The notes under the pieces are model-generated. The model saw only the letters and a list, made by a program, of their open reading frames with translations, searched no databases and was not told the DNA's origin. Shown here one piece after another: positions 3,634 to 48,057 of a stretch of 64,000 nucleotides of DNA; positions within the stretch are counted from its first letter, which is position 1; the number at the start of each line of letters is the position of its first letter. Made by a program: the position numbers and the translations under genes. The stretch covers positions 50,428,961 to 50,492,960 of the forward strand of contig NC_092383.1 in assembly GCF_030028105.1 (NCBI RefSeq). Reading direction: 5' to 3'. The stretch comes from Mobula birostris. Lineage: Eukaryota.

Positions 3634-3660
3634 CTGCATCCTTTTCACGTAATTCTTCAT
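3634..3660 (-). CDS. 27-nt phase-1 micro-exon, DEELREKDA
   Basis: ttttcccgttgcag|ATGAAGAATTACGTGAAAAGGATGCAG|gtgaaa; 25/27 identical to exon 29543-29569. Confidence 0.75.
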
Positions 3661-3704
3661 CTGCAACGGGAAAATAAGCAATAATTTAAGGAAATATTTC
3701 AAAT

Positions 3705-4225
3705 CTAGTTAGGCCTTTATAAGAAGGACGTGGAAGCATTTGAAAGGGTGCAGAGAAGATTTTCGAGGTTGATGCTTGGACTAAAGGGCAAGTCTTACGA
3801 AAATAGTTTGAGGAGATTGGGGCTTTTTTCTTTGGAACGAAGGAGAATAAGATGACTTGATAAGGGTATTTAGCTGATAGAAATAATCTCGGACTCGATC
3901 ATCAGGCACCTTTTCCCTGGGCTCATGTAGCAGACACAAGGAGGCATATTTTAATAGTGATTGGAGGAACGTATGACGGGTGGATGTCAGAGGCATTGTA
4001 AGATCTTCACACAAAGGATGGTGGGTGCGTGGAACTCCCTGCCATGCGTGGTGTTAGAGGCAGGTAAATTAGTGGCATTTAGGAAACTCTTAGCCAGGCA
4101 TGTCGATGATAGAAAAATGGAGCGTAACGTAGGAGGGAATGGTTAGATTGACCTCAGTGCAGGTTAAGAAGTCGGCAGACTCGAGGGGCGAAGGACATGT
4201 ATTGTGGTGTAATGTTTTACGTTCG
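3705..4225 (+). mobile_element. Degenerate CR1 3' fragment
   Basis: Remnant FTQRMVGAWNSLP and a CR1-like 3' UTR. Confidence 0.75.
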
Positions 4226-4513
4226 ATAAATATTTTCAATATTGTCCGAGAATTTTTAACCACTGAGCTTGCGCACAGCATGAATTAGTTTAAAATATAT
4301 AAAATAAATATCTTCTGATATTATATTGGAGCGGATATGGTCTATGCTTTTCAGGATCTCATAGCAATATTATTTTATATCCTAGACGTTTCTGTCATTC
4401 TAGTGATTTCACTTTAGACAGAAGCTTATCCTCTTGCCAGGAATGGCAGGCAACATCTTCTCCGAACCTGCTCAGGCATTTAATGTTCTCTAGGCAATCG
4501 TTTAGGTTCATAC

Positions 4514-4537
4514 CATTTCTTGCACTTAGCCACAAAG
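4514..4537 (-). CDS. Candidate 24-nt phase-1 micro-exon, ALWLSARN (weak)
   Basis: tttttctacattaag|CTTTGTGGCTAAGTGCAAGAAATG|gtatga; AAG acceptor and an atypical peptide. Confidence 0.35.
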
Positions 4538-4858
4538 CTTAATGTAGAAAAATCTATCGATGCTTTGAGAATCCTTCAATGTAGTGTCTTTCAAAGCATC
4601 CGCAGACGTTTAGTAAATCATCACCAGCAGGTCAGTGAGTGACAGGAGGTTCCAAACCTTATGCTTGCCTCCATTCTGATCATTATTATTGCATGGACAA
4701 TACATTACAGTAGTATTTTTAGCACCCTCTGTGAAGTACCAGGGGGGATTTCACACACACAGGTGCCGAAATCATGATATAATCTGGACATAAACTTATA
4801 GGCAGTAGACGCGGCTAAATATTTTAAGCGGAATACTATTCTATTATAACCTTAACAC

Positions 4859-4903
4859 GTGTGTGTGTGTGTGTGTGTGTATGTGTGTGTGTGTGTGTGT
4901 GTG
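4859..4903. repeat. (GT)n microsatellite
   Basis: Direct reading; one interruption. Confidence 0.97.
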
Positions 4904-5473
4904 ACGTCATCCTGTGATCATGTACTGTTTCTGAGATACTATTGTTTCCTCCCTCATTCCAAAGACTGTTAGTTGCTCGGTAAGTAGACCAGTGGAAATT
5001 GTTCGTGTGGAGTAAGTGGTCGAAAAACATAGTTGGCGTGGTTATGAGGAATGGGTTGACTTTTTTTTTCATGTGAGAACGTATACGTTGCAGAGAAATA
5101 ACGTGGGCATGCGGACGGATGCGGTTATTCTGAGAGGTGGCATAGGCTTGTTGGGCCAAATGGCTTCCATTTATCTTGTTGAGAAAAGAATGAAAATTTC
5201 CCTGCTGGTTGAAGTTGGCTAACTATTGGAATACCATTTGAATTTGACGAGAAAGACTTTGGCAATAACAACAGATCACTCTTAGGTTTTGATCCTGTTA
5301 AAGCATGAAGGCAATATGGCAGCGATAGCTCCCCAGTCGTCAGATTAGCACCTTCGCGAAAGCACCTTTCATGAACAAATGGCAGGAAATCTACAAATAT
5401 ATAACCGTTGTTTTGAAATTTCCAAAGTAAAGCAGGAAGGTGTTTGTAAACTATTCACGAATATATACCTTAC

Positions 5474-5500
5474 CGTCTACAACGCACTTCATATTACTGT
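5474..5500 (-). CDS. 27-nt phase-1 micro-exon, DSNMKCVVD
   Basis: tttcattgttttag|ACAGTAATATGAAGTGCGTTGTAGACG|gtaagg; phase 0 has stops. Confidence 0.78.
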
Positions 5501-6175
5501 CTAAAACAATGAAATGAACAGATAAATAGTAAAAAGGGAACAGATATATTACGTTCTTGCTTTGAACATATTGTGTTTTTCAGGCACACCGATTTCGCCT
5601 CACAACCTAATGATTTGCCCATACATTCAATAGTCAGAAAACTTTGCTCCGAGAGCGACGGTAAAATGACGGAGGAGTTTTTTAGCGCGAAAGCGAGGTG
5701 CGGGAGGAAATGTGACCGATACGAGTGTTCTGCGACCTGGCATAGACTTAATGCCCAGAAAATCCTGCTCGCAAAATATACGAGTGACACAATGCAATAG
5801 TGTTAAATATAATGGCGTACTTTGCGTATAATTACTATTATTGTTACTTTCTGCTTTATCCTGTGTTTATTAAGGCAATTTTAGAAAAGTTACGATGCTC
5901 TGTTCTGGGAAGACTGATCACAATGAATTGTCGTTTTAATTCTTGAAATGATACATCTCTACCTTAGAATGGAAAGGAGAACGTAAAAAAAGTTTTGCTC
6001 GAGATTTATCCTGACTGAGAACAGACTTGCAAAACACACCAATCATACAAACGGCTCATCGTGTAAGTTTCACTGGGGAACATTTAAATATTAAAGGAAA
6101 CTGAGCAATTGATGCAGAGGTGAAATGAATGGCGCAGATAAATAATGCTGATCGATTCCTTTCGCGACAAATCAC

Positions 6176-6202
6176 CGTGGAATATCTTGCGTAAGAGAGC
6201 TT
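6176..6202 (-). CDS. 27-nt phase-1 micro-exon, EALLRKIFH
   Basis: ccttcactgagtttag|AAGCTCTCTTACGCAAGATATTCCACG|gtgatt; moderate splice sites. Confidence 0.55.
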
Positions 6203-7852
6203 CTAAACTCAGTGAAGGCGACAACACTTTACTATAACTATGTATTAGAAATAACCGAAATTTAATATTTTAGTGACAAAATCTACCATGCATTGGAGAA
6301 ACGTGTGATTTGAAAGCAGGTGCCCTGATCAAGTTGTCACCTTCTAGTCTAGGGATAGATCTGGTAATAACTTTATCCATGAAATTATCTCATGGTTTAT
6401 GGGAGAAGCAGGAGCTTAGGCCCTTACAGTCCCCCTTCCCCACATCTGCCTAATCCCGTCGATCTGCACACAGACTGTGAACTCTACACTTCTGCTCTCC
6501 ACGTACCTATCCAAATTTCTCTTCAATGTTGAAATCGAACCCAGATCCACCACTTCCGACAGCAGCTCGTTCCACATTCTCACCATCCGCTGTGTGAAGA
6601 AGTTCCTCCTCATGTTTAAAGATTTCACGTTTCACCGTTCATTTTGGAACTGAGTGGCTCAGAAGGCCAGGAGGAAAAATGATAGGGATTCTATAGTTAG
6701 AGGAGCAGACAGGGGATTCGTTGGACGTGAAAGAGATGGTATGTTGTATCTTCCAGGTGTCAGGATCAAGAATGTCTGCAGCATTCTAAGGGGGTGGGGA
6801 AGCGAGCACCGGTAAGTCGTGGGACATATAGACAACGTAGGTAAGAAAACTGACGAGGTCCTGAAGAGAGAATATAGGGAGTTAGTTAGAAAGCCGAAAA
6901 GCATAACCTCTAGGTAGTGACCTCTAAATTGATGCCTGTGCCATTCGCCGGTGAGGTTAAGACTAAGATAATTTGCCAGGTGAATGTATTGCTGAGGAAT
7001 TTGTACAGTGGGTAGGGTTTCCGATTTTGGATCATTGGGTTTTCTTCAAGGGGAACAATGACCTGTACAAAAATTATGAATTAAACCTGAACCGGAGGAA
7101 GACCAATATTCTTGCGGGCAGTTTTGCTAAAGCTATTGTGGAGGGTTTAAACTAATTTTGCAGGGGGATGGGAACCGGAGTGATAGGGCTGAGAATGGAA
7201 CAGTTACTATAACAGTTGATGTAGTGTGTAGAAGGACAGGCAGATGATATGGCAAAATTGAAGTCAGTTGGATGAGTGTACCATAGGAGCAAAATCGCAA
7301 AAGTTGACGAATACAGAATTGAAGATGTTATATTTGAAAGCACGTAGTATTCTGAATAAGGTAGATTATCTTCCATCACAGTTAGAGATTTGCAGCTATA
7401 GTGTTATGGGTAGCACTAAGTCGTGGTAGCCAGGATATTGGATAAAATTTCAAAGGAGATAGAAAAGCCACATAAACAGGATAATGTTACGATTGTCAGA
7501 GGGTTTTCAATATCAGGTAGACTGGGAAAATCAGGTTGGTGCTGGATACCAAGAGATGTAATTTGCATAAAATTCGGGTATTATTTGTTTCTCATGGCTG
7601 AACCCACTAAAGAAGAGGTAATTGTGGGTTGGATGTTGTTTAACGAACTAGGTTTGATTAGGAACCATTAAAAGACAGTGATTATAATGTGATCGAATTC
7701 ACACTCCAGTTGTGAGGGAGAATCTAAAGTCAGCAGTAGGTTAGAGTAAATGGAATTACAGAGGCTCAAGAAGGGAGCTCGTCAAAGTTGATTGGAAGGT
7801 GACACTAACGAGGATGATGGCAGAACAGAAATGGCTGGAGATTCTGGAGGAA

Positions 7853-9542
7853 CTCTGGAGGAATGGATGGAGGAACTGAGGGAAATGCATGTTAGTAGGG
7901 AAGTGGTGTTAGGTAAATTGAAGGGATTAAAGGCAGCTAAATCCCTAGGGCCAGATGGTCTGCATCCCAGAGTGCTTAAGGGATTAGCCCAAGAAATAGT
8001 GGATACATTAGTGATAATTTTTCAAAACTCTTTAGATTCTGGATTAGTTCCTGAGGATTGGAGGGTGGCTAATGTAACCCCACTTTTTAAAAAAAGGAGG
8101 GAGAGAGAAACCAGGGAATTATAGATTGGTTAGCCTAACATCGGTGGTGGGGAAAATGCTAGAGTCAGTTATCAAAGATGTGATAACAGCACATTTGGAA
8201 AACAGTGAAATCATCGGACAAAGTCTACATAGATTTGTGAAAGGAAAATCATGTTTGACGAATCTCATAGAATTTTTTCAGGATGTATCTAGTAGAGTGG
8301 ATAGGGGAGAACCAGTGGATGTGGTATATTTGGATTTTCAAAAGGCTGTCGACAAGGTCCCACACAGGAGATTAGTGTGCAAACTTAAACCACACGGTAT
8401 TGAGGGTAAGGTATTGATGTGGATAGAGAATTGGTTGGCAGACAGGAAGCAAAGGGTGGGAATAAATGGGACCTTTTCAGAATGGCAGGCAGTGACTAGT
8501 GGGGTACCGCAAGGCTCAGTACAGGGACCCCAGTTGTTTACAATATATATCAATGACTTACATGAGGGAATTAAATGCAGCATCTCCAAGTTTGCGGTTG
8601 ATACGAAGCTGGGGGGGGGGGGCAGTGTTAGCTGTGAAGAGGATGCTAAGAGCATGCAGGGTGACTTGGATAGCTTAGGTGAGTGGGCAAATTCATGGCA
8701 GATGCAATTTAATGGGGATAAATGTGAGGTTATCTACTTTGGTGGCAAAAACATGAAAACAGATTATTATCTGAATGGTGGCCAATTAGGAAAAGGAGAG
8801 GTGCAACGAGACCTGGGTGTCATTATACACCAATCATTGAAGGTGGGCATGCAGGTACAGCAGGCGGTGAAAAAGGCGAATGGTATGCTGGCATTCATAG
8901 CAAGAGGATTCGAGTACAGGAGCAGGGAGGTACTACTGTAGTTGTACAAGGCCTTGGTGAGACCACACCTGGAGTATTGTGTGCAGTTTTGGTCCCCTAA
9001 TCTGAGGAAAGGCATCCTTGCCATAGAGGGAGTACAAAGAAGGTTCATCAGATTGATTCCTGGGATGGCAGGACTTTCATATGATGAAAGATTGGATCGA
9101 CTAGGCTTATACTCGAATTTAGAAGATTGGCGCCGGGGGCGGAGGGGGGGGATCTTATTGAAACACATAGAATCCTAAAGGGATTGGACAGGCTAGAGCA
9201 GGAAGATTGTTCCCGATGTTGGGGAAGTCCAGAACGAGAGGTCACAGTTTGAGGATAAAGGGGAAGCCTTTTAGGACAGAGATGAGGAAAAACTTCTTCA
9301 CATAGAGAGTGGTGAATCTGTGGAATTCTCTGCCACAGGAAACAGTTGAGGCCAGTTCATTGGCTTTATTTAAGAGGGAGTTAGATATGGCCCTTGTGGC
9401 TAAAAGGATCAGGGGTTATGGAGGGAAGGCTGGTGCAGGGTTCTGAGTTGGATGATCAGTCATGATCATACTGAATGGCGGTGCAGGCTCGAAGGGCCGA
9501 ATGGCCTACTCCTGCACCTATTTTCTATGTTTCTATGTTTCT
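7853..9542 (+). mobile_element. Younger 5'-truncated CR1 LINE (RT and 3' UTR)
   Basis: GPDGLHPRVLK, KSCLTNL, SGVPQGS, RPHLEYCVQFWSP; (tttctatg)n tail; TSD attctgga(g/a)gaa at 7841-7852 and 9543-9554. Confidence 0.93.
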
Positions 9543-11036
9543 ATTCTGGAAGAAATTCAGTAGATGCAGGAGAGGTACATCCCAAAGAAGAAAACGTACT
9601 CCAAAGGGAGGATGACGCAATCACGGCTGACAAAGCAACTCAAAGGCAGCCTAAAAGAAAAATGAGAGGGCATATAATATTGCACAAATTAGCGGCAAGC
9701 TAGAGGATTTGGAAGCTTAAAAACAACAGAAGGAAACTAAACGTCAGAAGGGGAGAAAAGATGAAATATGAAGGTAAGCTAGCCCATAATATAAATTAAA
9801 AATGTAATAGAATTTTTTCAGATATATAAAGAGTTAAAGAGAGGTGAGAATGGATACCAGACCGCTGGAAAATGACGTCGGAGAGGTTGTAATGGGAGAT
9901 AATGAAATGGTGGTCGAACTTAAAATGTACTTTGTGTCAGTCTTCCCTGTGGAAGATACTAGCAGTATGCCAGAAATTAGAGCGTGCAGTTGCTATTACT
10001 AAGAGGAAGGTGCTTGGGAAGCTGAATGTTCTGAAGGTAAATAAGTCACTTGAACCTGATAGTCTCCACGCCAGGTCCTAAAATCGGTAGCTAAAGGGAT
10101 TATGCAGGTAGTAGCAATGATCTTCCAAGTACCACACGATTATGGATTTTTTTTCATAGGACTGGAAATTTTCAAATGTCATCCCACTCTTTAAAAAAGT
10201 ACGGAGGCACAAGAATGAATATTATATGGCAGTACACCTGACCTAACTGGTTGCAAAGGTGCTATTAAGGATGAGAATTCGGGGTACTTAGAGGAACCTG
10301 ATAAAATAGGCCAAAGTCAGGATGGTTTCTTATGGGGAAACCTTGCCTGACAAACCTGTTGGAATTATTTGAGGAAGTGACCAGCAGGATAGACAGAGGA
10401 GAGTCACTGGATGTAGTGTTCAGGTTATCGACAACGTGCTGTTCTCGAGGCAGCTTAACAAGATAAGAAAAAAATGGTAAAATGACTAACTGGCGGGAAG
10501 CAATGATTGGGAGTAAATAGGGAGTTTCTGGTAGGCGGCCGGTGGCTAGAGTTGCTAGACAGGGATCTGTTTTGGGTCCGCATTTTTTTTCACGTTATAT
10601 GTCAATAATTTCGATGAAGAAGTTGATGGCTTTTTGGTCAACTGTGTGAACAATACGAAGATAGGTGGAGTGGAATGTAGTGTTGGGGTAGTGAGAGTCT
10701 GCAGAAGGACTTAGACAGATTGGGAGAGTGGGCAAAAAGTAACTGGTAGAATATGGTGTTGGTAATTGTATGGTCATGCTCTTTGGTAAAAAGAATAAAA
10801 GTATATAAAATTTTTCTAAACATGGAGAATATTCAATAAATTAGAGGTGCAATTGGATTTGGGAGTCCTCGTGCAGGATTCCTTAAAAGGTAATCTACAA
10901 GTTGATTCAGTAGTAAGGAAGGCCAATGCAATATTAGCAATTATTTTGAGAGAACTGCAATGCAGAAGCAAAGACGTTATGCGGAGGATTTAAAAATAAT
11001 TGATCTTACTGCACTTGAGGTATGCTGAGCAGTTTA

Positions 11037-13243
11037 GACCTTAAGACCATAAGACCATAAGACAAAGGAGCAGAAGTTGGCCATTCGGCCCATTGAGTCC
11101 GCTCCGCTATTTTATCATGGGCTGATCCATTCTCCCATTTAGTCCCGTTCCCCCGCCTTCTCACCATAAACTTTGATGCCCTGGCTACTCAGATACCTAT
11201 CAATCTCTGCCTTAAATACACCCAATGACTTGACCTCCACTGCCACCCGTGGCAACAAATTCTACAGATTCACCAGCCTCGGGCGAAAAAAATTTCTTCG
11301 CATCTCTGTTCTGAATGCGTGCCCTTCAATCCTTAAGTTATGCCCTCTCGTACTAGACTCCCTCACTATGGGAAACAACTTTGCCTCATCCACTCCGTCC
11401 ATGCCTTTCAACATTCGAAATGTTTCTATGAGATCCCTCATCATTCTTCTAAACTCCAAGGAGTACAGTACAAGAGCGGTCAACGTTCCTCATATGTTAA
11501 CCCTCTCGTTCCCAGAATCATTCTAGCAAATACTCTCTGAACGCTGTCCAATGTCAGCACATCCTTTCTTAAATAAGGAGCCCTAAACCGCACACAGTAC
11601 TCCAAGTGAGGTCTTACCAGTGCCTTATAGAGCCTCGATATCACATCCCTGCTCCTATACTCTATTCCTCTAGAAATGGTTGCCAACATTGCATTCGCCT
11701 TCTTCACCACCGACTCAACCTGAAGGTTAACCTTAAGGGTATCCTACACAAGTACTCCCAAGTCCCGTTGCATCTCAGAACTTTGAATTCTCTCCCCACT
11801 TAAATAATAGTCTGCCCGTTTATTTCTTCTACCAAAGTGCATAATCATACACTTTCCAACATTGTATTTCATTTGCCACTTCTTTACCCATTCTTCCAAT
11901 CTATCCAAGTCTCTCTGCAGACTCTGTGTTTCCTCAGCACTACCGGCCCCTCCACCTATCTTAGTATCATCAGCAAACTTAGCCACAAAGCCATCTATTC
12001 CATAATCCAAATCGTTGATGTACAATGTAAAAAGAAGAGGCCCCAACATGGACCCCTGTGGAACACTACTGGTAACCGGAAGCCAACCAGAATGGGATCC
12101 CTTTATTCCTAATCTCTGTTTCCTGTCAATCAGCCAATGGTCTATCCACGTATGCAACTTTCCCGTAATTCCATGGGCTCTTATCTTTTTTAGCAGCCTC
12201 ATCTGCGGCACCTTGTCAAAAGCCATCTGAAAGTCCAAACGCACAACATCCGTTGCATTTCCCTTGTCTCACCTACTTGTAATTTGCTCAAAAAATTGCA
12301 ATAGGTTTGTCAGGCAGGATTTTCCTTTAAGGAAACCATGCTGAGTTCTGCCTATCTTGTCATTTGCCTCCAGGTACTCCGCAACCTCATCCTTGACAAT
12401 CGACTCCAACAACTTCCCAACCACCGATGTCAAGCTAGAAGGTAAATAATTTCCTTTTTGCTTTTTTGCCCCCTTCTTAAATAGCGGAGTAACATTTGCA
12501 ACCTTCCTGTCCTCCGGAAACATGCCAGAATCTATTGACTTTTGAAAGATAATTGCTAATGCCTCCGCAATCTCCACAGCTACTTCCTTCAGAACACGAG
12601 GGTGCATTCCATCTGGTCCGGGAGATTTATCTACCCTTAGACTATTCAGCTACCTGAGTACTTTCTCTGCCGTAATTGTTACTGCGCATACCTCTCTTCT
12701 CTGCCACCCTTGAGTATCTGGTGTACTGCTGATGTATTCCTCAGTGAAGACTGATGCAAAATACTCGTTCAGTTCCTCCACCATCTCCTCATCTCCCATT
12801 ACAATTTCTCCGGCATCATTTTCTCTCGGTCCTATATCTACATTCACCTGTCTTTTACTCTTTATATACTTGGAAAAGCTTTTAGTATCCTCTTTGTTAT
12901 TATTTGCTAGCTTCCTTTCATAGTTAATCTTTTCCCTCTTAATGACCTTCTTCGTTTCCTTTTGTAAGCTTTTAAAAACTTCCCAATCCTCTGTCTTCCC
13001 ACTAATTTTTGCTTCCTTGTATGCCCTCTCCTGTGCTTTAACTTTGGCTTTAATTTCTCTTGTCAGCCACGGTTGTATCCTTTTTCCATTCGAAAATTTC
13101 TTGCACCTTCCTCACTTCTCGCATGAACTCCAGCCACTGCTGCTCTGCCGTCCTTCCCGCTAGTGTCCCTTTTCAGTCAACTTTGGCCAGTTCCTCTCTC
13201 ATGCCACTGTAATTTCCTTTACTCCACTGAAATACCGACACAC
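11037..13243 (-). mobile_element. 5'-truncated CR1 LINE
   Basis: Minus-strand ORFs with HPRVLKE, VPQGSMLGP, KFADD, RPHLEYC; (gtcttatg)n tail at 11037-11062. Confidence 0.92.
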
Positions 13244-14517: not shown

Positions 14518-14553
14518 CTGTAAGCAGCAACAATTTTTTCAGTTTCGATAGTT
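14518..14553 (-). CDS. 36-nt phase-1 micro-exon, ELSKLKKLLLLT
   Basis: ttttctgttgacttag|AACTATCGAAACTGAAAAAATTGTTGCTGCTTACAG|gtaagg; same length and ELSK start as exon 51535-51570. Confidence 0.78.
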
Positions 14554-14929
14554 CTAAGTCAACAGAAAATCCGAGGTTTTTGTTGTGATTGAAGTTCTTT
14601 GCCTAACGTGCACTCAAATTAAATCGCAAAGAATCAGGTTATAGTTATTCCTTTCTGTCCAATTGTTCCCATAGAGGTAATTGCATTATCTTCTTAAAAA
14701 GATGGGACTTCTTGATGAAAACTGCTTGCAAAGTGATTTTGGACATGAGGTAACTGAGATTAAACGTAAAAAATGGCAATAGATTTTTCTGTCTGACTAT
14801 GCTGGTCCTTCATTTTGGCACGGTTTTCGGGTTTGCAGCAGGTTGTAAGCAGTGACCACTAGATATGATATACTTTCACGACTGACTAATGTGGTGGCAA
14901 ACCCATGATCTTTGATATGAATATAGTGT

Positions 14930-15530: not shown

Positions 15531-15880
15531 GTCAATTACGAGTGACATCACCACACTTTTTGGAAGAAAAGCACTTGATGGGAAATAGATGTTGGATACA
15601 TCAGTAACAGCCACATACTCAGTGTTCCTACTGTCGTCTAGTCTTGAATAGCAGAACGTCTGTTTTGTTTCTGAAGTTCATTAAATGGACTATACCATAG
15701 TTGTAACTCGTACCTCGTAGACATTGAGAAGACTAAGAGGAAGATAGCTATAGCCAATCTCTTATCTACCCATGCAGGCAGCACCTTTATGAGCCTGCTC
15801 TGACGGCTGGAACGTGCTATTTCTATTCAGAACAATTTGTGTTTCGGCGGGACAGTGGAGAATGATATTTACTCAATTAC

Positions 15881-15907
15881 CTGTCTCCTTCTGCTCCAAG
15901 CTATTTT
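15881..15907 (-). CDS. 27-nt phase-1 micro-exon, ENSLEQKET
   Basis: tcttgcatttgtcgcag|AAAATAGCTTGGAGCAGAAGGAGACAG|gtaatt. Confidence 0.78.
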
Positions 15908-16984: not shown

Positions 16985-19900
16985 AATATAGAACAGTACA
17001 GCACAGCAGAGCACAGCACTGGAAAAGGGCATTCGGCCCACAATATTGTAACGAACCAGCTAAAAAGCTAATCAAACACAACCAAACACTCATCCCTCCT
17101 GTCTACACAATGCTCATATGCCGCCAGCTTCCTTACATCCATGCGACGATCCAAACGCCTCTTAAAAGCTTGTAAGATAAATCCCTCTACCACCATACCA
17201 GGCAGCGCATTCCAGGCATCCATCACTCTCTGAATAAATATCTTACCCCTCACATCCTCCTTGAAACTACCCACTCTCACCTTCAATGCATACCCTTGGG
17301 TGTTAGAGATTGCCACCCTGGGAAACAGATACTCCCAGTCTACTCCATCTACACCTCATAATCTTATAAATCTACCATATCTTACCTCAGTCTCCATGGC
17401 TCCAGAGAAAACAACCCAAGTTTATCTAGCGTTTCATAGTAGCACATGCCCTCTAAACCAAGCAGAATCCTGGTAAACCTCTTCTGCATCCCCTTCAAAG
17501 CCTCAAAATTCTTCCTATAGTGTGGCGACCAGAACTGTATGCAATATTCCAGATGTGACCTAACCAGAATTTTATAAAGTTGCAACAAAACCACTTCACT
17601 CTCGAACTCATTGCTTCGACTAATAAAAACAAGCACTCCATTAGCCTACTTCACTGCCTTATCGACTTTCAAGGATCTATGAAGTTAGATCCCAAGATCT
17701 CGCTGCTCAGCAACGCTGTTAAGGATCTTACTGTTAAAAGTGTACTGTTCCCTTGCATTTGCCCTACCAAGGTGTAACACCTCATATTTATTCGGGTTAA
17801 ACTCCATTTGCCATTTCTCCGCCCATATCCGCAACTGATCTATATCACGCTGTATTCTTTGTCAGTCTTTTACACTATGAACAACTCTACCAATCATGGT
17901 ATTATCCGCAATCTTACTAATACACCCATCTACATTTTCATCCAAGTCATTTATATACATCAGAAACACTAAATGTCCCAGAACAGACCCCTGCAGAACA
18001 CCATTAATTTCAGACCTCTAGATCGAATAAGCCCCTTCAACCACAACCCTCTGTCTTCTATACACAAATCAGTTCGAAATTCAATCAGCCAATTCATTAC
18101 GCATCTTAATCTTCTGGATTAGCCTCCCATGAGGAACTTGTCAATCGTCTTACTAAAATCTATGCAGACAAATTCCGTGTACTGTCATCAATCTCTCTTG
18201 GCACTTTGTCAAAATACTCTAAATCAAGTTGGAAAAACATGAAATGCCCCGCACAAAGCCACGCTGACCCTCCCCTATGGGTTTCCAAATGTTCATGTAT
18301 CCTATCTCTAAAAAACCTCTCCAGCAATTTCCCTGCAACTGGCTTGAGACTCAATGGAGTTCAGTTCTCAGGAATTGCCCTTGTTCACTTCATAAATAGA
18401 AGTAGAACATTAACCACTCGGCAGTCATCTGGGACCTCCCCCGTGGCCACAGGGAACACGACGATACTGATCTATAGACAACAGACAATAGACAATAGGT
18501 GCAGGAGTAGGCCATTCAACCGTTCGAGCCAGCACCACTATTCACTGTGATCATGGCTAATCATCCACAATCAGTACTCTTTTCCTGCCTCCTCCCCATA
18601 TCTCTTCACTCTGCTATCTTTAAGAGCTCTATCTAACTCTTTTTTGAAAAAAATCCAGAGAATTGGCCTCCACTGCCTTCTGAGACAGAACATTCCACAG
18701 AACCACAATCCTCTGTGTGAAAAAGTTTTTCCTTAACTCCGTTCTAAATTGTCTACCCCTTATTCTTAAACTGTGGCCTCTGGTTCTGGACTCCCCCAAC
18801 ATCGGGAACATGTTTCCTGCCTCTAGCTTGTCCAATCCCCTAATAATCTTATATGTTTAAATCAGATCCCCTCCAATCCTTCTAAGTTCCAGTGTATACA
18901 ACCCCAGTTGCTCCAATCTTTCAACATATGACAGTCCCGCCATCCCGGGAATTAACCTCGTGAACCTAGGCTGCGCTCCCTCAATAGCTAGAATGTCCTT
19001 CCTCAAATTTGGAGACCAAAACTGTACACAATATTCCAGGTGTGGTCTCACCAGGGCCCTGTACAACTGCAGAAGGACCTCTTTGCTCCTATACTCAATT
19101 CCCCTTGTTATGAAGTCCAGCATACCATTAGCTTTCTTCACTGCCTGCTGTACCTGCATGCTTACTTTCAGTGACTGATGAACAAGGACACCTAGATCTC
19201 GTTGTACTTCCCCTTTTTCTAACTTGACACCATTCAGATAGTAATCTGTCTTCCTGTTCTTGCCACCAAAGTGGGTAACCTCACATTTATCCGCATTAAA
19301 CTGCATCTGCCCACTTAGCCAATCTGTCCAATTCACCCTGCATTCTCATAATATCCTCTTCACAATTCACACTGCCACCCAGCTTTTTGTTACCTGCAAA
19401 TTTGCTAATGTTACTTTTCATCCCTTCATCTAAATCATTAATGTATATTGTAAATAGCTGCGGTCCCAGCACCGAGCCTTGCAGAACCCCACTAGCCACT
19501 GCTTGCCATTCTGAAAAGGACACATTAATCCCTACTCTTTGTTTCTTGTCTGCCAACCAATTTTCTATCCATGTCAGTACCCTACCCCCAATACCATTTG
19601 CTCTAATTTTGCACACTAACCTCCTATGTGGGACCTTATCAACGGCTTTCTGAAAGTCCAGGTACACTACATCCACTGGCTTTCCCATGTCCATTTTCAT
19701 AGTCACATTCTCAAAAAATTCCAGAAGATTAGTCAAGCATGATTTCCCCTTCGTAAATCAATGCTGACTCTGACCTATCCTGCCACTGCTATCCAAATAT
19801 GCCCCTATTACATCTTTTATAATTGATTCCAGCATCTTCCCCACCACTGATGTCAGACTAGCTGGTCTATAGTTGCCTGTTTTCTCTCTCCCTCCTTTCT

Positions 19901-22900
19901 TAAAAAGTGGGATAACATTAACTACCCTCCAATTCGCAGGAACTGATCCTGAATCTATAGAACATTGGAAAATGATTACCAATGCGTCCACGATTTCTAC
20001 AGCCACCTCCTTAAGTACTCTCGGATGCAGACCATCAGGCCCTGGGGATTTATCAACCTTCAGTCCCATCAGTTTACCCAACACCATTTTGTGCCTGATG
20101 CGAATTTCCTTCAGAACCTCTGTTAGCCTAGGTCCTCTGGCCACTATTACATCTGGGAGATTGTTTGTGTCTTCCATAGTGAAGACAGATCCAAAGTACC
20201 TGTTCAGCTCGTCTGCCATTTCCTTGTTCCCCATAATAATTTCACCCGTTTCTGTCTTCAAGGGCCCAACTTTGGTCTTAACTATTTTTTTCCTCTTCAC
20301 ATACCTAAAGAAGCTTTCACTATCCTCCTTTATATTTCTGGCTAGCTTACCTTCGTACCTCATCTTTTTCTCCCGGATTGCCTTTTTAGTTATCTTATGT
20401 TGCTCCTTAAAAGACCCCCAATTCTCTGGCTTCCCACTCATCCTTGCTATGTTATACTTCCTCTCTTTTATTTTTATACTGTCCTTGATTTCCCTTGTCA
20501 TCCACGGTGGCCCCTTACTCCCCTTAGAACTTCTCTTCCTCTTTGGAACGAACTGATCCTGCACATTCTGTATTATTCCCAGAAATACCTGCCATTGTTC
20601 CACTGTCATCCCTGCTAGGGTATCTTTCCAGTCAACTCTTGCCAGCTCCTCCCTCATGTGTCCATAGTCCCCTTTGTTCAACTGTAATACTGACACTTCC
20701 AATCTTCCCTTCTCCTTCTCAAATTGTAGTTTAAAACTTATCATATTATGGTCATTACCTCCTAATGGCTCCTTTACCTTGAGTTCCCTTATCAAATCTG
20801 TCTCATTACACAACACTAAATCCGGAATTGCCTTCTCCCTGGTAAGCTTTAATACAAGCTGCTCTAAGAATCCATCTCTGAGGCATTCCACAAACTCCCT
20901 TTCTTGGGGTCCAGTACCAACCTGATTTTCGCAATCTACCTGCATGTTAAAATCCCCCATAACAAATGTAGAATTACCTTTGCAACATGCCAATTTAACC
21001 TCTTGATTTAACTTGCACCCTATATCCAGGCTACTGTTTGGGGGCCTGTAGATAACTCCCATCAGGGTCTTTTTGCCCTTACAGTTTTTCAGTTCTATCC
21101 ATACTGACTCTACATCTCCTGATTCTATGTCCCCCCTCGCAAGTGACAGAATGTCATTCCTTACCAACAGAGCCACTCCACCCTCTCTGCCAACCTGTCT
21201 GTCCTTTCGATAGGATGTATATCCCAGAACATTCGTTTCCCAGCCCTGGTCCTCTTGCAGCCATGTCTCAGTTATTCTCACAACATCATACTTGTCAATT
21301 TCCAACTGAGCTTCAAGCTCATCCACTTTATTTCTTATACTCCGTGCATTCATATTTAATACTTCTAATCCTTTTAAAGTAATACTTTTACTCCCCTCAC
21401 CTTTCACATCGATTCCTATTGCACTTGCCTGTACTCTCCGATCCCTTCCTGATCTTTCTGTCCCTTTAATTCTGTTGTCTTTCTTAAATTTTCTTATTCT
21501 CTCATTCCCTTTAACTCCATTCTTATATTTCCAGTTCATCCCCTCCCCCCTCCCCAAATACTTAGTTTAAACACACCCGTGTAGCAGTGGCAAACTTGCC
21601 TGCCAGAACGCTGGTCCCCCGTCTGTTAAGGTGCAACCCGTCCTTCTGTATAATTCATTCTTACACCAAAACAGATCCCAGTGGTCCAAGAATCTAAATC
21701 CCTGCTCCCCGCACCAGCTCCTCAGCCACACATTCAGATCCCCTATCTCCCTGTTCATGACCTCTCCAGCACAAAGAATTGGAAGCAAACTCGGGATAAC
21801 CACCCTGGAGGTCCTGTTTTTCAGCCTTCTTCCGAGTTCTCTGAAGTCACGCTATAAAATGTCTCTCATCTTCTTCCCGATGTCATTTGTGTCGACATGC
21901 ACCACCACCTCCGGCTGATCACCTTCTCCCTCGAGGATGCCCTGCAATCGGCCCGAGATGTCCTGGATCCTGGCTCCAGGGAGGTAACACACCATCCTTA
22001 AATCCCGCCTGTTGCCGCAGAAACTTCTATTTGTACCTCTCACTATGGAGTCCCCTACTATCACGGCTCTGCCTGACGTCTGTTTCCTCGGCATTATTTC
22101 AGCGCCAATTTTTGACTCGCAGCCCCGTCCGCCTCTCAGACTGGAACTATCTTTTGTCCCGACAGCTTCCAAGAGGGTAAGCCTGTTTTCAAGAGGCACA
22201 TCCCCCTTGTTTTCCTGTACTCCAAGCATCCATCCCTTTCTCATCTTCGCCCCCCCTTCTCTCTTGCGGTATCTTCGGTGTAACGATCTCGCTGCAGGTC
22301 CTGTCCAGAAATCTCTCGGTTTCCCGGATGAACCTGAGGTCATCCAGCTGCCTCTCCAGTGCCTCACCACGGTCCTTCAGGAACTGAAACTGGATACACT
22401 TTCCACATTTGTAGCAACCAGAGGCACTATCAACGTCCCTGACCTCCCACACCATGCAAGCAGCACACTGAACCAGTTGACCTGTCATTTCTTCACCACT
22501 TCTCACCCTCTCCAACTGTGGCGTAGTCTCCTTCCTCAGCCTTCTCGCCGAAGACTCCCGAGCCAAAGACTGGCACTTTGCCCGCAAGACACTTTCCTTG
22601 ACAAGGCCGCTCCCCAACAGGCCGCTCCCCTAGAACAAACCTTGATTATATTGGCTGATATTTGACTAATTCGATTCACTTGTCGCACCTCGGCCGACCT
22701 CGAACGTTTGTCTTGCAGACTCAAAGCCACAACAGTCGCGTCTCATTCCTCCTTCGCTACTCTAGGGTAAATCTCATAAAGCCCGAAGGACTTATCCACC
22801 CTAATACTCTGTAGGAAGCCCAATGCTTCCTCCTCAACAACCTTTAAATGCCCTACCGTATTTATACCCTCAGTACTGATCTCCTGGACCTCCACACCGT

Positions 22901-24340: not shown

Positions 24341-24344
24341 ATAA

Positions 24345-25110
24345 TATAACTATATAACCATATAGCAATTACAGAACGGAAACAGGCCATCTCGGCCCTT
24401 CTAGTCCGTGCCGAGCTCTTAATATCAACTAGTCCCACCGACCTGCACTCAGCCCATAACCGTCCATTCCTTTCCTGTCCATATATCTATCCAATTTAAC
24501 TTTAAATGACAACATCGAACCTGCCTCAACCACTTCTGCTGGAAGCTCGTTCCAAACAGTTACCACTCTTTGAGTAAAGAAGTTCCCCCTCATGTTACCC
24601 CTAAACTTTTGCCCTTTAACTCTCAATTCATATCGTCTTGTTTGAATCTCTCCAACCCTCAATGGAAAAAGCCTATCCACGACATCTCTACCTATCCCCC
24701 TCATAATTTTAAATACCTCTATCAAGTTCCCCCCTCAACCTTCTATGCTCCAAAAAATAATGACCCAACTTGTTCAACCTTTCTCTGTAACTTAGGAGAT
24801 GAAACCCAGGTAACATTCTATTAAATCCTCTCTGTACTCTCTCTATTTTGTTGACATCATTCCTATAATTCGGTGAACAGAACTGTACACAATATCCAAA
24901 TTTGGCCTTACCCAATGCCTTGTACAATTTCAACATTACATCCCAACTTCTATACTCAATGCTCTGATTTATAAAGGCCAGCATACCAAAAGCCTTCTTC
25001 ACTAGCCTATCCACATGAGATTCCTCCTTCAGGAACTGTACACCATTATTCCTAGATCCCTCTGTTCTACTGCATTGTTCAATGCCCTACCATTTACAAT
25101 GTATGTCCTA
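24345..25110 (-). mobile_element. CR1 3' fragment of a distinct subfamily
   Basis: ORFs 24429-24725 and 24709-25014; highly similar inverted copy at 45714-46185. Confidence 0.9.
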
Positions 25111-25199
25111 TAATGTATGTCCTACCAAAATAGTCCTACCAAAATGTAGTCCGACCAAAATAATCCAAGAACTTGCAAGGATGTTATAATATCATAATT

Positions 25200-28140
25200 C
25201 TATAAGACGCACACGCAGAATTAGGCTATTCGGCCCAGCGAATCTGATGCACCATTTGAACCTGGTTGATCTACTTCCTTCTCAATCCTGTTTTTGTCAC
25301 AATGGGGGGCGTTGATGGCGGACCAAAGTTCAAGACACAGGCACTGAAGTACAAGGAACAAGACCTTACTAGAGTAGGGACGTGACATGATACCAACAAG
25401 GAGTAGGGACAAGAACGCAGACTGGGGCTTAGACCCCGAGCCAGAGACTGGGGAGGAACCCAGAACCTGGGTCTTGCCTCTGGCTCGGGCCCCAGAACCA
25501 GGCATGGACATGACATGACTGCAGGACTGAAGGTTGGGGTCTTGGGGCTTGAGGCTTGAGCTTGGAGACAGGCTTGGGGTCTTGAGGTTTAAGCTTGGAG
25601 ACAGGCCTGAGGCTGGGGTCTTGGTCTTGGGTCTTCAGTACTTCGAGGCTTGGGTATGGACTCCGAGCCAGAGACTGGACAAGGACCCAGAACCTGGGAC
25701 TTGACTCGGGTTCAGACTCCAGAACTAGGCGAGGACAAGACGAGGCTACAGTACTGGACATGGCTTGGGTGAGGAACTCCTGGGGATGGCGAGACACAAG
25801 GACAGTTAAAGGCACATGGACAGGGCTCAGATAGGACTGGACTAGGCAGGGACTGTATGAAGGCCTTCAGGAGCACGGAGCCTTGGACTAGAAGAGACGG
25901 GAGCACGGAGCCTTGGACTAGAAGAGACGGGAGCATGGAACACAGAGCCGGGACCCCTCCTAGGGAACAGGACGTAGGGCCGGGACTCATACACAGAACG
26001 CTGAACATGAAGAGAGCGATCCCAACTCAAGGTGGCAGCAAACGGCCGGACCCACCTAGCGAAGGCAATGACTCAAAGACAGTTCTGAACACTAGGTAGC
26101 GGCAAATAGCCGGACCTACCTAGCGAAGTAGTGGACACAGAGAGACAATTCCACACAATGAAAGACAGTTCCTTATCTTGACCTAACGAGGCTCCGGTCT
26201 TGCTCCGGCCGTAAAACTTCAGCGATACAGGCGGGGTATCCAGGCTAGGTGAGCAGGCAGAGAGTCAGGCGGCGGGGGGGGGGGGGGGAGACAGGGTGGG
26301 GGGGAGACAAGTAGGGGAACGACAAGGAGGGGAACAGAATAGTTCAGCCGGGAATTCCTGGTTTGCACAGGTATTTATTTCTCAGCCCCAGAACGAGAAA
26401 CATGTGACCACAACAGAAACTGGGGAAAACCAGAAACCCTGGAACAAGGAGCCATGGACTGGACCGTGAACCGGAACACGGACTTCACAGACCGGACCAT
26501 GACAGTTTTTCTGCCTTGTCTCATAAGATTTCACTCCCTGATTAATCAAAAACCTATCAATTTCCACAATAAGTACACCCAGTGACCTGGGCTCCACAGC
26601 CGCCTGAGGCATCGAGTTCCATAGATTCACCACTCTCGTCTCTGTTCTGAATGGAAGACCCTGTATTCAGACGTTGTGTCGTCTGGACCCAGATTCCACC
26701 ACTATGGGAAATATCCTACCCACATCCACTTTACCTAGGCCTTTCAACTTTGGATAGGCTTTAATGAGATTCCACCCCAACCCTCACTCTCCAGCGAGTC
26801 GAGTCCCAGAGCCACCAACCGCACTTCATATGATAATATTTTCACCGCCGGAATGGGTATATTAAACCTCCTTTGAACTCCTTCCAATGTCAGCACATCC
26901 TTTCTCAGATAAGGAGCCGGCCCAAAAGTGCCCACAACACTCCAAGTGCGGCCTCACCACTGCCTTGTAAAGCATTTTGTCCCCCTGTTTCAGTGCAGCC
27001 TATCCCACTGACTGTAATTTTGCCTTGTCATCTGCCTGTCCTTCATAACAGTTGCCTCTGATTGTATTGCAATTGCCCATCCTCATCCCTTTCGCTCTGT
27101 TTCCCATATCCCTACCAAGTGAGCTTAAACCCTCAACAGTCCTAGAGAACCTCTCCACAAGGATCTTGGCTCTCGTCGGGTTCATGTATAACCCGACCCT
27201 TTTGTTCAGGTCATACCTTCCGTAAAAGGGATCACATTGATCCAGAAATCTGAAACCATTGCCCCTTGCACCAGGTTCTCAGCCACGGACTTATTTGCCA
27301 AATTACCCTGTTCTTATCCTCACAGGTGCATGGCACAAGCAGCAATCCAGAGATTACTAACCTGGCGGTCCTACTTTTCATCTTTCTACCTAGCTCCCTA
27401 AATTCTCTCTTCAGCACCTCCTCCCTTTTCCTATTTATGTCCATGGTGTCAGGACTTCTGGCTGCTCACCCTCCCCATTTAGACCATGCTGTGGACTCGA
27501 TTTGCACTATCCCTGACCCTGGAACCTGGGAGCCAACATACCACACCAGTGTGTTAATCGCGTCCACGGGATCTCGCGTCTATTCCTCTAACTATCGAAT
27601 CCCACACCACTATTCAGTCCTCCTCTTCCCTTTCCTCTCTGTGGCACAGCTCCAAGTTCCGAGACAGAGACGCCGTCGCTGCCGTTCCCCTGTAGCAGGT
27701 TGCCCACTCTAACAGTAACTAAAATGGTACACTTATTATTGAGGGAACCGGCCACAGGAGTACTCTGCACAGACTGCCCATTTCGTTTCCCTCTCCAGAC
27801 AATCACCTAGGTATCTGCCTCCTGTAACTTAGGTGTCACTGCCTTTCTGTAGCTCTTATCACCTCCTCACTTTCCCGTAGGTGCCGAAGTTCATTGAGCT
27901 GCAGATCCGGTTGCTTCACGCGTTCTCTGAGGAGTTGCATGTTGGTCCACCTACTGCAGAGATGGTGATCTGGGAGGCTGGAGGTCTCCGAAAATTCCCT
28001 CATCTTACACAAAAAAAAAACATAACACAGTAACTATGTACTAACAGACGAAGAATGAAGAATAAAAAAGAAACTTACCAGATACTCACTTCGCCCAATT
28101 TCTTCTCGCCGAAGACTGATGAGCTGCAGCCTCTTCAACT
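25200..28140 (-). mobile_element. Internally deleted CR1 (3' end joined to ORF1/5' region), host of the LTR-like insertion
   Basis: PYLRKDVLTLEGVQRRF near 26900; esterase-region remnants (VISGLL, WLRTWC) at 27232-27444. Confidence 0.75.
25295..26504. mobile_element. Solo-LTR-like element (1210 bp) with internal tandem repeats
   Basis: TGTCA...TGACA termini; 5-bp TSD gtttt at 25290-25294 and 26505-26509; host CR1 is continuous when it is removed. Confidence 0.8.
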
Positions 28141-28371
28141 CTAAAACCGGCCGGCTCATACAACGGTCAGTGCGGTTGTCCCGACATTAATTTTATTGCT
28201 TGCTAATGAATCGCGATTTGATGGTGTCGCCAGAAAAACAAAGGCTCAAAACCCGCGATGGCTGTTTTTTAAAAACTCACTCACAGACCTGTAAATCGCC
28301 TCATCACTCGCTTCCGATTTGATTGCGCCGCAGGAAAAAAAAAGCCGAAAAGCCACGAACGCTCCTTTTTA

Positions 28372-28425
28372 GCAACACACATCAAAGTTGCTTGAATTTC
28401 CAGCATCTGCAGAATTCCTGTTGTT
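28372..28425 (+). mobile_element. 54-bp Penelope 3'-terminal mini-insertion
   Basis: Matches the terminus at 54658-54712; flanked by direct repeat aacgctccttttta at 28358-28371 and 28426-28439. Confidence 0.85.
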
Positions 28426-29542
28426 AACGCTCCTTTTTAAATCAAACTTGAGCCCCCCTCCCTCGCTCCGGATTCGATTGGACCGCTGGAAAAACGCAGA
28501 AATTGCGCGAAAGCTCATTTTTAAATCACACGCAGGGATCTGTGAGTCGTCTCTGATCCTTTTGGGCCGCCGGAAAGATGTTATTATGTTCTGACTGGGT
28601 GCCGTGAAAGTAAATTGCATCGTTCCTTTCGCTTTTTATTCCACTGACCTGCTTCTTGAAGCCTTTTTCTCAAATCTGTTATTTCTGAAAGTGAATGAAA
28701 ACATGTCTTTAGCTATCGGTACATTAAAAAATATTAAGTCCACAGAGAAATTACTTGCTTCTGGTGCTCTTGAGGAAATCAAACACGATGTTATATCATA
28801 GAAACACAAGTGCCCGATTGGCCGAGGAAGCAATCAAGCGAGGAGTTTTGTTTCCCCATTTCATGCAATCCAGCACTTTCGTCTTCTTCAACTGTTTGTA
28901 AGTTTCTTTCACGAAGAAATCGACATCGAAACTGCTTTCGTTACAATTTGGGGCAGATTGTTAAGATCAAAAGTTGTTGCATTTTTTTCCTTTATATCTG
29001 TCTATCTGTCTGTATGTCTGTATTTATTTCAGATGATGCAGGACCTGATTATTGTTTCCAGCTATAATGGCGCCGCATGCATGGCGATACTTGCGGGCTC
29101 CCCTCTCCAGCATATCCCCCGGACTGTGTGGTCTTTGATACATTTCATTGTATGTTGTGATGTGCATGCAACAAATAAATTGAATCTTATCTATCTTTCT
29201 AATCATTTTTCAGATCTGGAAGGACGTAGAAACGTCGATCATTTGAGAACTAATTAGACTACAGAGGTGATTACGTAAAGGAAAATAATCTCGTCCTAGC
29301 AGCCGCAGAAAATAACACTTACAACTGAAAGAAATGGGAAAACGTTACGAAAATGATCTCTTCAATTATTTGCCAGAGTGAGCTTCAGCAAATTACAATA
29401 GGTCTTATAAGGACATTTCAGACCGTCCTAGTGAGGAGTTTGGACGCAACACCAACAGACACTTGCTGCCTTCAGAGTGGAACTGCCTATTGAAGTACTG
29501 GCTCAATTCATAATCCTGGAGTTTGAAGATTGTAACTATTAC

Positions 29543-29569
29543 CTCCATCTTTTTCACGTAATTCTTCAT
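29543..29569 (-). CDS. 27-nt phase-1 micro-exon, DEELREKDG
   Basis: ttttttcttatgttgtag|ATGAAGAATTACGTGAAAAAGATGGAG|gtaata. Confidence 0.8.
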
Positions 29570-29921
29570 CTACAACATAAGAAAAAATAATGAAAACTTC
29601 ATATAGAACCGACAGTGCAGCTAATTAATTTTTATTAAATTACTGTAGTAATTCTTGCATTCTTTGCATATAGATAAAGCTTATTTTGTGGAACATAAAT
29701 TTTATTTAATATTTTTATCATACTTTACCAATAAAGTATGAATTATGAATTCGTTACCGTGCTAACGTTCCATGACATCACTACACGTTTAGGAACAAAA
29801 GTACGTGACGGGAAACAGATGTTGGATACATCAGTAACAGCCACATACTCAGTCTTTCTACTGTGCTTAGATCCATTCCAACACTGTCCAGGTTTATTTT
29901 TCACTCCATGAAAATTCTCAC

Positions 29922-29948
29922 CTTTGTCTCGACTGGTGACACTCATGT
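29922..29948 (-). pseudogene. Probable dead 27-nt micro-exon (DMSVTSRDK) lacking the acceptor AG
   Basis: cctcaatacgggg|ACATGAGTGTCACCAGTCGAGACAAAG|gtgaga; strong donor, GG in place of AG. Confidence 0.4.
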
Positions 29949-30687
29949 CCCCGTATTGAGGACGTGTTGACGAGGCACGGTGTCATTGACTCACACATCA
30001 CAGAAAAAAATCCTTGGTGTTGGGTATCCACGCCGACCACGTAGTACCTATTTACCACCATTTGAAACGTTGCCTTTATTTTGCTTTGTCCTTTGTCTAG
30101 ATACTTCAAATACGAAAATCTCTGTCTCCGCCAACCTCTCAATCAGCGCGTCGCAATTTCCACCTATTCTGTGGTAAAAGGATAGCTTTTTCAGATTCTT
30201 TTTAACTTATATCTATACTCCTTACACTATAAACGGAAGCCCTGCAGTTTGATATACAGCTGCTATAAGTAAAAGTTTTATACAAACTACACTATCGATG
30301 CTCTCATACTTTTACATGGGATCCAGGCTGGCACGTCCTTTCAGTTCGCCAGAGGTGAGCTGTGACAGTTCATACTGAATATCCATTTGCTTTCTACTAA
30401 TTTGTTCTTTGGAACCTCAATAGAATGGAAACATTTTGAACGGATCTTTCTGTATTAACAGAAGAGAAGCAGATATAAAGGATGTTGACTGTCGAAATTT
30501 GGCTTCCATTGGAAATTCGTTTCTTGAGGCCTGTGCATGAAACCTTCATGTATTTTCAATTGTATAAGATGAGTTGCGATTGATTTATTATTATCTCAAA
30601 GACAGTATTTAATAGAATAAATTCAGATAATGACTTGAACCACAGAGGTGCTGAAATTCGATTGTCAAGTGAGAAAAGATGATCATA

Positions 30688-31240
30688 CATTCCAGTGTAC
30701 ACTTTGTTAGTTATCACCTGTACAAAGTGAGTGTATGTTCTTCGTTTTCCACTGCAGTTACCTATCCACTTCATGGTTCGAGGTGTTCTGCGTTCACTGA
30801 TGCTATTCTGCACGTTGCTGTAGGGACAAGCTTTCTTTTCCAGTTACTGACGCCTTCCTGGCAGCTTGAATCTGTGTAGCCCTTTTCCTTCAAACTCCTT
30901 CATTAACAAGACGTTTCGCCATCACAATTGCAGCTCAACGGAGTTTTGAGAATGCTTTTCGCACCATTGTTTAGAGATTCTGGAGACTATTATGCGTGAA
31001 AAATCCAACAATTTCTGAGATATTCAGACGACCGCGTCTGGCACCAACAATCATTCCACGGTCGAGATTGCTTAGATCACGTTTCTTCCAAATTCTGCTG
31101 TATGGTGTGAACAACAAGTACGCTTCTTGACCATGTCTGCATGCTTTTATGCATTGTGTCGTTGCCACATGATTGGCTGGTTGGTTATTTTCATTAACGA
31201 GAGTGCGTACAGATGAACATAATAACGTGGCCACTGAGAC
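30688..31240 (-). mobile_element. Tc1-like deletion derivative
   Basis: Degenerate TIRs (cagtg..cacttt / gtggccactgag); transposase N-terminus KKRDLSNLDRGMIVGARR. Another fragment lies at about 42990-43155. Confidence 0.8.
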
Positions 31241-32031
31241 TAAACTCTCCTGAAGTTCAAGCGATTCGAAAATCGGGGAAAATCCGTGGCAACGATAAAA
31301 CATGCCGATGGGTTATAGCGTGAGCACTTTATTCAGCAATTCAGAAAGAAACACCTGCTCTGAAATATTTTTAGAACAAATTCCCAAGAATTAAAATAAT
31401 CTATTGAGAGAAAACAACCCATGTATGGAAAGACCAAGATAATCACGAAGTACTAAAGGGTGCAGTGGAACAATTTAATCTGAATTTAAGGAAAATATGA
31501 TCCAGACTTCATATTATCCTGAGGTCCCAGCGCGAAATCGTGGCCTATCGGGACGTTGGAATCTAAATACGCAGTTGTCGTAAAGATTTCTTGTATAGTA
31601 GTTTAGCATAAATTCGTTCATTTGCGGGTTGTGGGCTACCTTGACAACTGCGCCTTTAATGCCCGTGGGTAATGCGAGTGGTACAGTTCGAATTTTATCA
31701 CAGTCGACAGACTTTACATTAATTTGTAATGAAAATCATTAATCGGCAAATGGCACTTTGAACTTATTGCAATGTCCTAAAAAATAAAGCCGCCACCTTC
31801 ACCAGCCTTACTCTACCGTGCTTGTCTGTTGCTCCAGACTAACCCATAGACCCAAGATATTTTGAAGCTTCCAAATCAACTCCGCAGCACATTGCAGAGG
31901 CATGAGCGTGCGATTATATTTCCAGCTAGCCAAAAACATCTTGGACTAGCACATATGCAGGCAAGCATCCAGTAAAGGTTATTATGTTTGGAATGATTCA
32001 TTTTACAAACAGTTAATAAATTAAGGCTCAC

Positions 32032-32055
32032 CATCTATCCTGCACTTGGAAAATT
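32032..32055 (-). CDS. 24-nt phase-1 micro-exon, EFSKCRID
   Basis: atttactctgatatag|AATTTTCCAAGTGCAGGATAGATG|gtgagc; shares KCxxD with exon 5474-5500. Confidence 0.75.
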
Positions 32056-41783: not shown

Positions 41784-41810
41784 CTTGCTCTTTCGAATTT
41801 AATATTTCCT
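41784..41810 (-). CDS. 27-nt phase-1 micro-exon, EEILNSKEQ
   Basis: ttatgtttttctgatag|AGGAAATATTAAATTCGAAAGAGCAAG|gtaaag. Confidence 0.8.
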
Positions 41811-48045: not shown

Positions 48046-48057
48046 CTGGTAATAGTT
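48046..48057 (-). CDS. Candidate 12-nt phase-1 micro-exon, ELLP (weak)
   Basis: ttgataatttaccag|AACTATTACCAG|gtaaaa. Confidence 0.35.

Follow-up and report, generated by a model that had tools for sequence, protein, structure and literature searches.

We examined a 64,000-nucleotide stretch of the Mobula birostris genome (assembly GCF_030028105.1, contig NC_092383.1, positions 50,428,961 to 50,492,960; hereafter the window, in whose coordinates all positions are given). On its minus strand, amid transposon debris, splice-site scans identified 12 candidate phase-1 micro-exons (E1 to E12), which extend from 51570 to 3634. The array very probably grew through internal duplication of its exons, as the initial annotation of the window had proposed; the exons fall into sequence classes and include two pairs with similarity far above chance (25/27 and 23/36 identical bases). 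Our analysis adds to that annotation the second of these pairs and a repeated unit comprising a 27-nt exon and a 36-nt exon, which is a more basic repeat than any multi-exon block. Taken as a whole, our model is that the window covers the mid-part of a large vertebrate gene whose micro-exons encode a coiled-coil rod and that grew by duplication of this pair and of larger blocks. We assign this model a probability of about 70%.

A strict scan for exons of 24, 27 or 36 nt, lengths that were fixed after inspection of the data, returned nine candidates on the minus strand and none on the plus strand. The chance level was 0 to 1 candidate per shuffle in 20 local shuffles, and the control lengths of 21, 30 and 33 nt yielded a single strict candidate. 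At a lenient threshold there were 17 candidates on the minus strand, three on the plus strand and 0 to 7 per shuffle; E3, E4 and E6 were hand-picked from this list and its remaining rows were excluded. The resulting array consists of seven exons of 27 nt, four of 36 nt and one of 24 nt, separated by introns of 514 to 12,741 nt. When profiles were built with one exon left out (11 exons, E6 not included), eight of the 11 held-out exons ranked within the top 3 of approximately 128,000 positions, and E2, E4 and E11 ranked 6, 25 and 536, respectively. Further, none of the 12 exons overlapped a window repeat of at least 45 nt, compared with 34% of the window so covered. Joined in order, E1 to E12 form 357 nt that are free of stop codons when read in phase 1, against 10 and 11 stop codons in the other frames. 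In a look-up of the stretch 41700-51650 among sequencing runs, no RNA run was listed, and three runs presumed to be RNA contained almost none of its sequence words. The 12 candidate exons are very probably genuine.

Every exon ends with G and 11 of 12 begin with A. Because the exons are also symmetrical in phase 1, the codon split at a junction encodes Asp or Glu whichever exon precedes it. The uniform phase and junction bases therefore make each exon a frame-neutral module, which can be duplicated, lost or skipped singly or in blocks; this neutrality holds for every exon and every block of exons.

According to BLOSUM scores and base identity, the exons formed three classes: A (E5, E7, E9 and E12; 27 nt), B (E1, E4, E8 and E10; 36 nt) and C (E6, 24 nt, and E11, 27 nt), the last characterized by KCxxD. 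From E1 to E12 the order is B, shortened B, uncertain (E3), B, A, C, A, B, A, B, C, A. One of the two strong pairs consists of E8 and of E2 extended by the 9 nt upstream of it, which were identical at 23 of 36 positions (p 1e-4). An AG inside E8, after base 9, coincides with the acceptor position of its paralogue E2 and is a possible alternative acceptor.

The strongest pair was that of E7 and E12, in which the 25/27 identity noted in the initial annotation was confirmed (shuffle p 5e-5); the runner-up match to the E7 27-mer on both strands of the window reached 19/27. Self-BLAST aligned the two copies over 36 nt (91.7%), comprising the exon, 7 nt of the acceptor and the donor GT, and nothing further. 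One of the two differences is silent and the other is a Gly/Ala change. In a test for dispersed repeats, the 27-mer had two copies in 64 kb, each bounded by AG and GT and outside the window repeats. Inside the window, the 27-mer does not belong to a dispersed repeat, and the flanking introns are less conserved than the exons. A metagenome scan with the shared 27-nt motif gave 0 matches, in a collection that is unlikely to include this organism. Because the likeness ends at the splice sites, it supports the exons being real, as the initial annotation had argued from the duplication.

The flanks of this pair had been described as similar, which proved correct for short motifs. The acceptors are gttgtag and gttgcag, and agttacaa occurs downstream of both exons (shuffle p 0.018), but at different offsets, +6 and +25; an 8-mer was common to that downstream zone in two of 66 exon pairs. 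In a raw comparison of 40-nt flanks, one of 12 settings placed the two claimed pairs first and second of 66. Composition-preserving shuffles, however, gave z values of 0.9 and -0.2 and ranks of 13 and 38 of 66, which is background, and we rejected flank homology for these pairs. Comparison of whole introns detected no match longer than 20 nt in seven of seven pairs of stretches. The spacers are thus without alignable similarity, in agreement with the initial annotation, which had called them otherwise dissimilar.

A KCxxD exon had been noted 1.8-2.5 kb upstream of each class A copy, and E6 indeed lies 2462 nt before E7 and E11 lies 1813 nt before E12. The two C exons nevertheless differ in length (24 and 27 nt) and are identical at 12 of 24 positions, far more diverged than E7 and E12. 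The best internal repeat lags were 51 codons (score 57), 38 codons (score 32) and 21 codons (score 31), and the 51-codon lag aligns E6-E7 with E11-E12, so that the C-then-A order recurs. On the exon evidence alone, one shared duplication of a C+A block (E6-E7 and E11-E12) appears somewhat more probable than its absence. The single old multi-exon tandem duplication proposed initially is suggested by the recurrent order and only partly supported: its intron evidence failed under controls and the C pair is far more diverged than the A pair.

The 36-nt exons E1 and E10 both start with ELSK(M/L)K, as previously described, and are identical at 20 of 36 positions; but the ELSK start is not peculiar to any one pair, and E1 is about as near to E8 (BLOSUM 22) as to E10 (BLOSUM 19). 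This pair does not extend the C+A block, because E1 is four exons from E6, is also near E8, and no B exon was found between E5 and E6. The start of E6 resembles E1 (p 0.006), and its class B-like start and class C-like end are about equally strong. Fusion of a B start with a C end to form E6 is not favoured; it needs a deletion ending in two tiny exons, and the flanks of E6 and E10 are unlike. We also dropped a strict five-exon unit (27-36-27-27-36), whose lengths fit only with one exon lost and in which E2 proved to be class B, and rejected a decayed A exon at 50532-50558 (minus strand) in the E1-E2 intron, which may formerly have contained an A exon; this stretch is identical to E7 at 19 of 27 positions, ties with the chance match, contains a stop codon and is without splice sites.

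The basis of the two-exon unit is the heptad register. An A exon and a B exon together comprise 63 nt, or 21 residues, which is three heptads. Core residues are Leu at codon 4 in class A and those at codons 2, 5, 9 and 12 in class B, which places the core of A+B at codons 4, 7, 11, 14, 18 and 21. Therefore only the A+B pair preserves the register of the coiled coil. From E7 to E10, six heptads are in register with L or I at all a positions (p 0.00035). When these four exons were permuted, 8 of 24 orders scored equally, as expected if the alternation of A and B, rather than the exact order, maintains the register. The C exons probably break it and act as hinges.

Several observations weigh against our model. 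Intron homology did not survive control for local base composition. E3, E4 and E6 rest on the lenient scan with the chance yield given above, and the absence of stop codons from the spliced frame is partly circular because length and an open phase-1 frame served as selection criteria. In the E5-E6 intron, where a regular unit would include a 36-nt exon, a profile search found none. Further, E1 to E5 have no significant heptad period (p 0.27). No domain exon (immunoglobulin (Ig), membrane or B30.2) was found in the window, with Ig matches in none of 144 long open frames; the start and end of the gene would therefore both lie outside the window. Finally, E7 and E12 differ at one silent site, where saturation would give 4.3 (p 0.016 in a post hoc test), and such low divergence fits badly with an old duplication unless silent sites were constrained or converted.

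The single silent difference implies either that splice enhancers hold the silent sites or that both exons were later homogenised. Accordingly, the near identity of E7 and E12 may stem from a separate exon-sized event, either gene conversion over a short tract or duplication of one exon, with the C-then-A repeat being older or coincidental. That the two are 93% identical and differ by one silent change, when the C pair is only 50% identical, suits such an event, as does a likeness that stops at the splice sites with intron homology absent under controls. Against it, E6/E11 and E7/E12 share both the lag of 51 codons and their order, and one silent change in eight codons is near the 10/23 silent changes of six other exon pairs (about p 0.08). 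E7 and E12 are also rich in purine (74-78%), with three GAA each, and splice enhancers constrain silent sites (PMC6169883). We consider a separate event unlikely. Convergence, in which the coiled-coil pattern, a composition rich in E and K and the requirements of splicing made unrelated micro-exons alike, would agree with the weakness of most within-class pairs (BLOSUM 13-22, with p 0.0004-0.05 before any correction for the 66 pairs). It is nonetheless highly improbable, being unable to yield base identities of 25/27 or 23/36 or the recurrent 27- and 36-nt lengths with shared phase and register.

That the array is a decaying pseudogene, a set of chance splice-like sites or fragments of dispersed repeats is also improbable. 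In favour of such readings, E2 has lost its presumed original acceptor, the E5-E6 interval is without a B exon, and the introns carry many insertions. The candidates are nevertheless strongly biased in strand and length relative to the controls, the exons changed in size by whole codons, and the two copies of the 27-mer are bounded by splice sites and lie away from repeats. The rod could alternatively be an extracellular stalk, such as the neck of a CD23-like type II C-type lectin, or belong to another coiled-coil gene, rather than be a tail of the BG/B30.2 type. CD23 has 21-residue repeats with one exon each. The 21-residue period is found here too, disulfides between chains could be formed by the two cysteines, and no defining domain lies within the window; a lectin exon was not found in the window by the Pfam scan of long open frames. 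In our array, however, the 21 residues are spread over two exons, the array spans more than 48 kb, and the A+B register agrees with that of BG exons (PMC5938342). We regard a stalk as a possible but less favoured identity, and place the odds of a BG/butyrophilin/B30.2-type gene at about even.

Under the model of duplicated micro-exons, the window would lie within a large vertebrate gene, probably one of cartilaginous fishes, and cover its mid-part; the micro-exons on the minus strand would code for a long coiled-coil rod of alpha helix. Modules were presumably added by unequal crossing-over inside introns, in repeated tandem duplications of the A+B pair and of larger blocks, one of which would have copied a C exon with the A exon following it. 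Selection on the coiled coil may have favoured additions of A+B. The introns would then have diverged past recognition and filled with transposons, with exons and splice sites retained by selection. In two exons the acceptor side was apparently trimmed by whole codons, by 9 nt in E2 and probably by 3 nt in E6. The trimmed exons, like the C exons, would move the helix out of register and are probable hinge points. The rod would most likely be a dimerising spacer resembling the heptad tail of BG and butyrophilin proteins, and the chance that it ends in a B30.2 domain beyond the window seems about equal either way.

Table 1. Candidate micro-exons of the array in window coordinates, listed in the direction of the gene.
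Feature	Position	Strand	Length (nt)	Class	Remarks
E1	51535..51570	-	36	B	starts ELSK; first found in window; strong splice sites; leave-one-out rank 1/127,887
E2	48357..48383	-	27	B minus first three codons	strong splice sites
9 nt upstream of E2	48384..48392	-	9		intronic now; reads as class B start; preceded by AT, not AG; acceptor probably lost
E3	47816..47842	-	27	uncertain, end class B-like	lenient scan; leave-one-out rank 1
E4	42903..42938	-	36	B	weak acceptor; lenient scan; leave-one-out rank 25; BLOSUM 16 to E8, p 0.008
E5	41784..41810	-	27	A	leave-one-out rank 1
E6	32032..32055	-	24	C (KCxxD)	lenient scan; BLOSUM 16 to E11, p 0.008
E7	29543..29569	-	27	A (DEELREKD)	copy 1 of near-identical pair
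E8	28649..28684	-	36	B	leave-one-out rank 1; AG inside, after base 9
E9	15881..15907	-	27	A	leave-one-out rank 1
E10	14518..14553	-	36	B	starts ELSK; leave-one-out rank 3
E11	5474..5500	-	27	C (KCxxD)	strong splice sites; unlike other 27-nt exons; leave-one-out rank 536
E12	3634..3660	-	27	A (DEELREKD)	copy 2 of near-identical pair; last found in window; leave-one-out rank 2

The surroundings of the array are dominated by mobile elements. The 12.4 kb upstream of E1 are mostly transposon and the 3.6 kb downstream of E12 are mostly long interspersed nuclear element (LINE). The transposon content looks vertebrate, and the LINE tails resemble those of sharks and rays. The 144 open frames of at least 85 codons matched only transposon-type families in Pfam, apart from GDSL/OSK in a LINE, and Rfam gave 0 matches in 42,500 and 21,301 bases. 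When proteins were searched with a profile built from five class B exons, 163 candidates were returned, none with E <=10, in a weak test in which the window's own product reached only E 0.24; a class A profile was without power (E 1.3e4). Longer phase-1 exons (39-417 nt) with strong sites were represented by two overlapping candidates, both within a long terminal repeat (LTR) element, and were rejected.

On the plus strand, an element at 425-3511, which we take to be L1-like, contains endonuclease and reverse transcriptase (RT) matches in shifted frames and ends approximately 120 nt past E12. A long LINE at ~18470-22400 on the minus strand, that of the gene, has a 602-aa open frame (endonuclease) and RT, with a weak GDSL-esterase match upstream; its layout is presumably that of CR1/L2 elements. 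A remnant of an LTR retrotransposon at ~53400-61750 has terminal repeats that are 84% alike over 200 nt and matches to RT and an integrase zinc finger. Nested in it at ~54650-57600 is a GIY-YIG element, which we assume to be Penelope-like. In the E5-E6 intron, where the class B exon is missing, a weak RT match at 36528-36995 (plus strand) marks a degraded LINE, and the E11-E12 intron contains a TG microsatellite at ~4858-4903.

Annotation easily overlooks exons as small as 24-36 nt when the introns between them reach 12.7 kb. The window thus indicates a hidden gene, which may be an immune B30.2 gene, in a lineage relevant to the history of butyrophilins. In a bolder reading, less likely than not, the array is part of a giant and largely unannotated cartilaginous-fish gene: the 27+36-nt cassette would be the unit of duplication and in-register skipping, the length of the rod would be tuned across gene copies, alleles or isoforms as a ruler that places a B30.2 sensor, and the cysteine-containing C exons would be hinges. 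If this were true, the gene would have arrived independently at a counterpart of the chicken BG tail, with an exon pair as its unit. That a repetitive coiled coil grows by duplication of symmetrical exons is already known from BG genes, so the claim of duplication is in itself ordinary. The paired-exon version is new within the literature searched; the layout was not found in literature on butyrophilin/B30.2 coiled-coil exons of sharks and cartilaginous fishes, in a search that mostly did not include subscription papers. Less usual is a unit of two exons, each out of heptad register alone and jointly restored to it, which predicts paired gain, loss and skipping.

Comparison with known systems places the array closest to BG in design. 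If its gene ends in B30.2, the array would share with fish and mammalian TRIM-B30.2 genes a coiled coil ahead of that domain. The coiled coils of finTRIM proteins, however, are encoded by a pair of exons of ordinary size, 96 and 234 bp (PMC2657112), and not by a micro-exon array. The micro-exon genes (MEGs) of schistosomes have very small symmetrical exons that permit skipping, with exon duplication reported, and are described as flatworm-restricted and tied to secretion (PMC4350168). Our array shares with them only the symmetrical micro-exons, which make up most of the candidate coding part inside the window; its predicted product differs in being a heptad rod in a vertebrate. Butyrophilin (BTN) genes have several very short, skippable heptad exons ahead of B30.2 (PMC6790196), occur in cartilaginous fishes and differ in heptad number among lineages (PMC12841164). 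Short phase-1 heptad exons are likewise present here. Mammalian BTNs, in contrast, have few heptads only (PMC5938342), whereas at least 12 exons of our array, which is open on either side, fall within the window, and no IgV, IgC, membrane or B30.2 exon was found in these 64 kb.

Chicken BG genes, of the butyrophilin family, have 27-37 exons with gain and loss of blocks, including one four-exon insertion (PMC5938342, PMC4046983). Ahead of the tail they have a single Ig-V exon and a membrane exon, and they lack B30.2. Their micro-exons are symmetrical, with codons split into one base and two bases, and encode a heptad coiled coil with core residues at the fourth and last codons (PMC5938342). BG exons are mostly 21 nt (a few 18 or 24) and encode one heptad each, whereas our 27- and 36-nt exons reach three heptads only when paired, and the C exons break the register. 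Further, the introns here are 0.5-12.7 kb, and no Ig-V or membrane exon was seen in the window; the likeness described here is one of design. Membership of the BG, BTN, MEG and TRIM families is alike unproven, and from its sequence the array would work like a BG tail. As in chicken BG, many symmetrical phase-1 micro-exons encode a heptad coiled coil, and the register of A+B equals that of three BG exons placed end to end (PMC5938342), a 1-in-7 coincidence if the two are unrelated.

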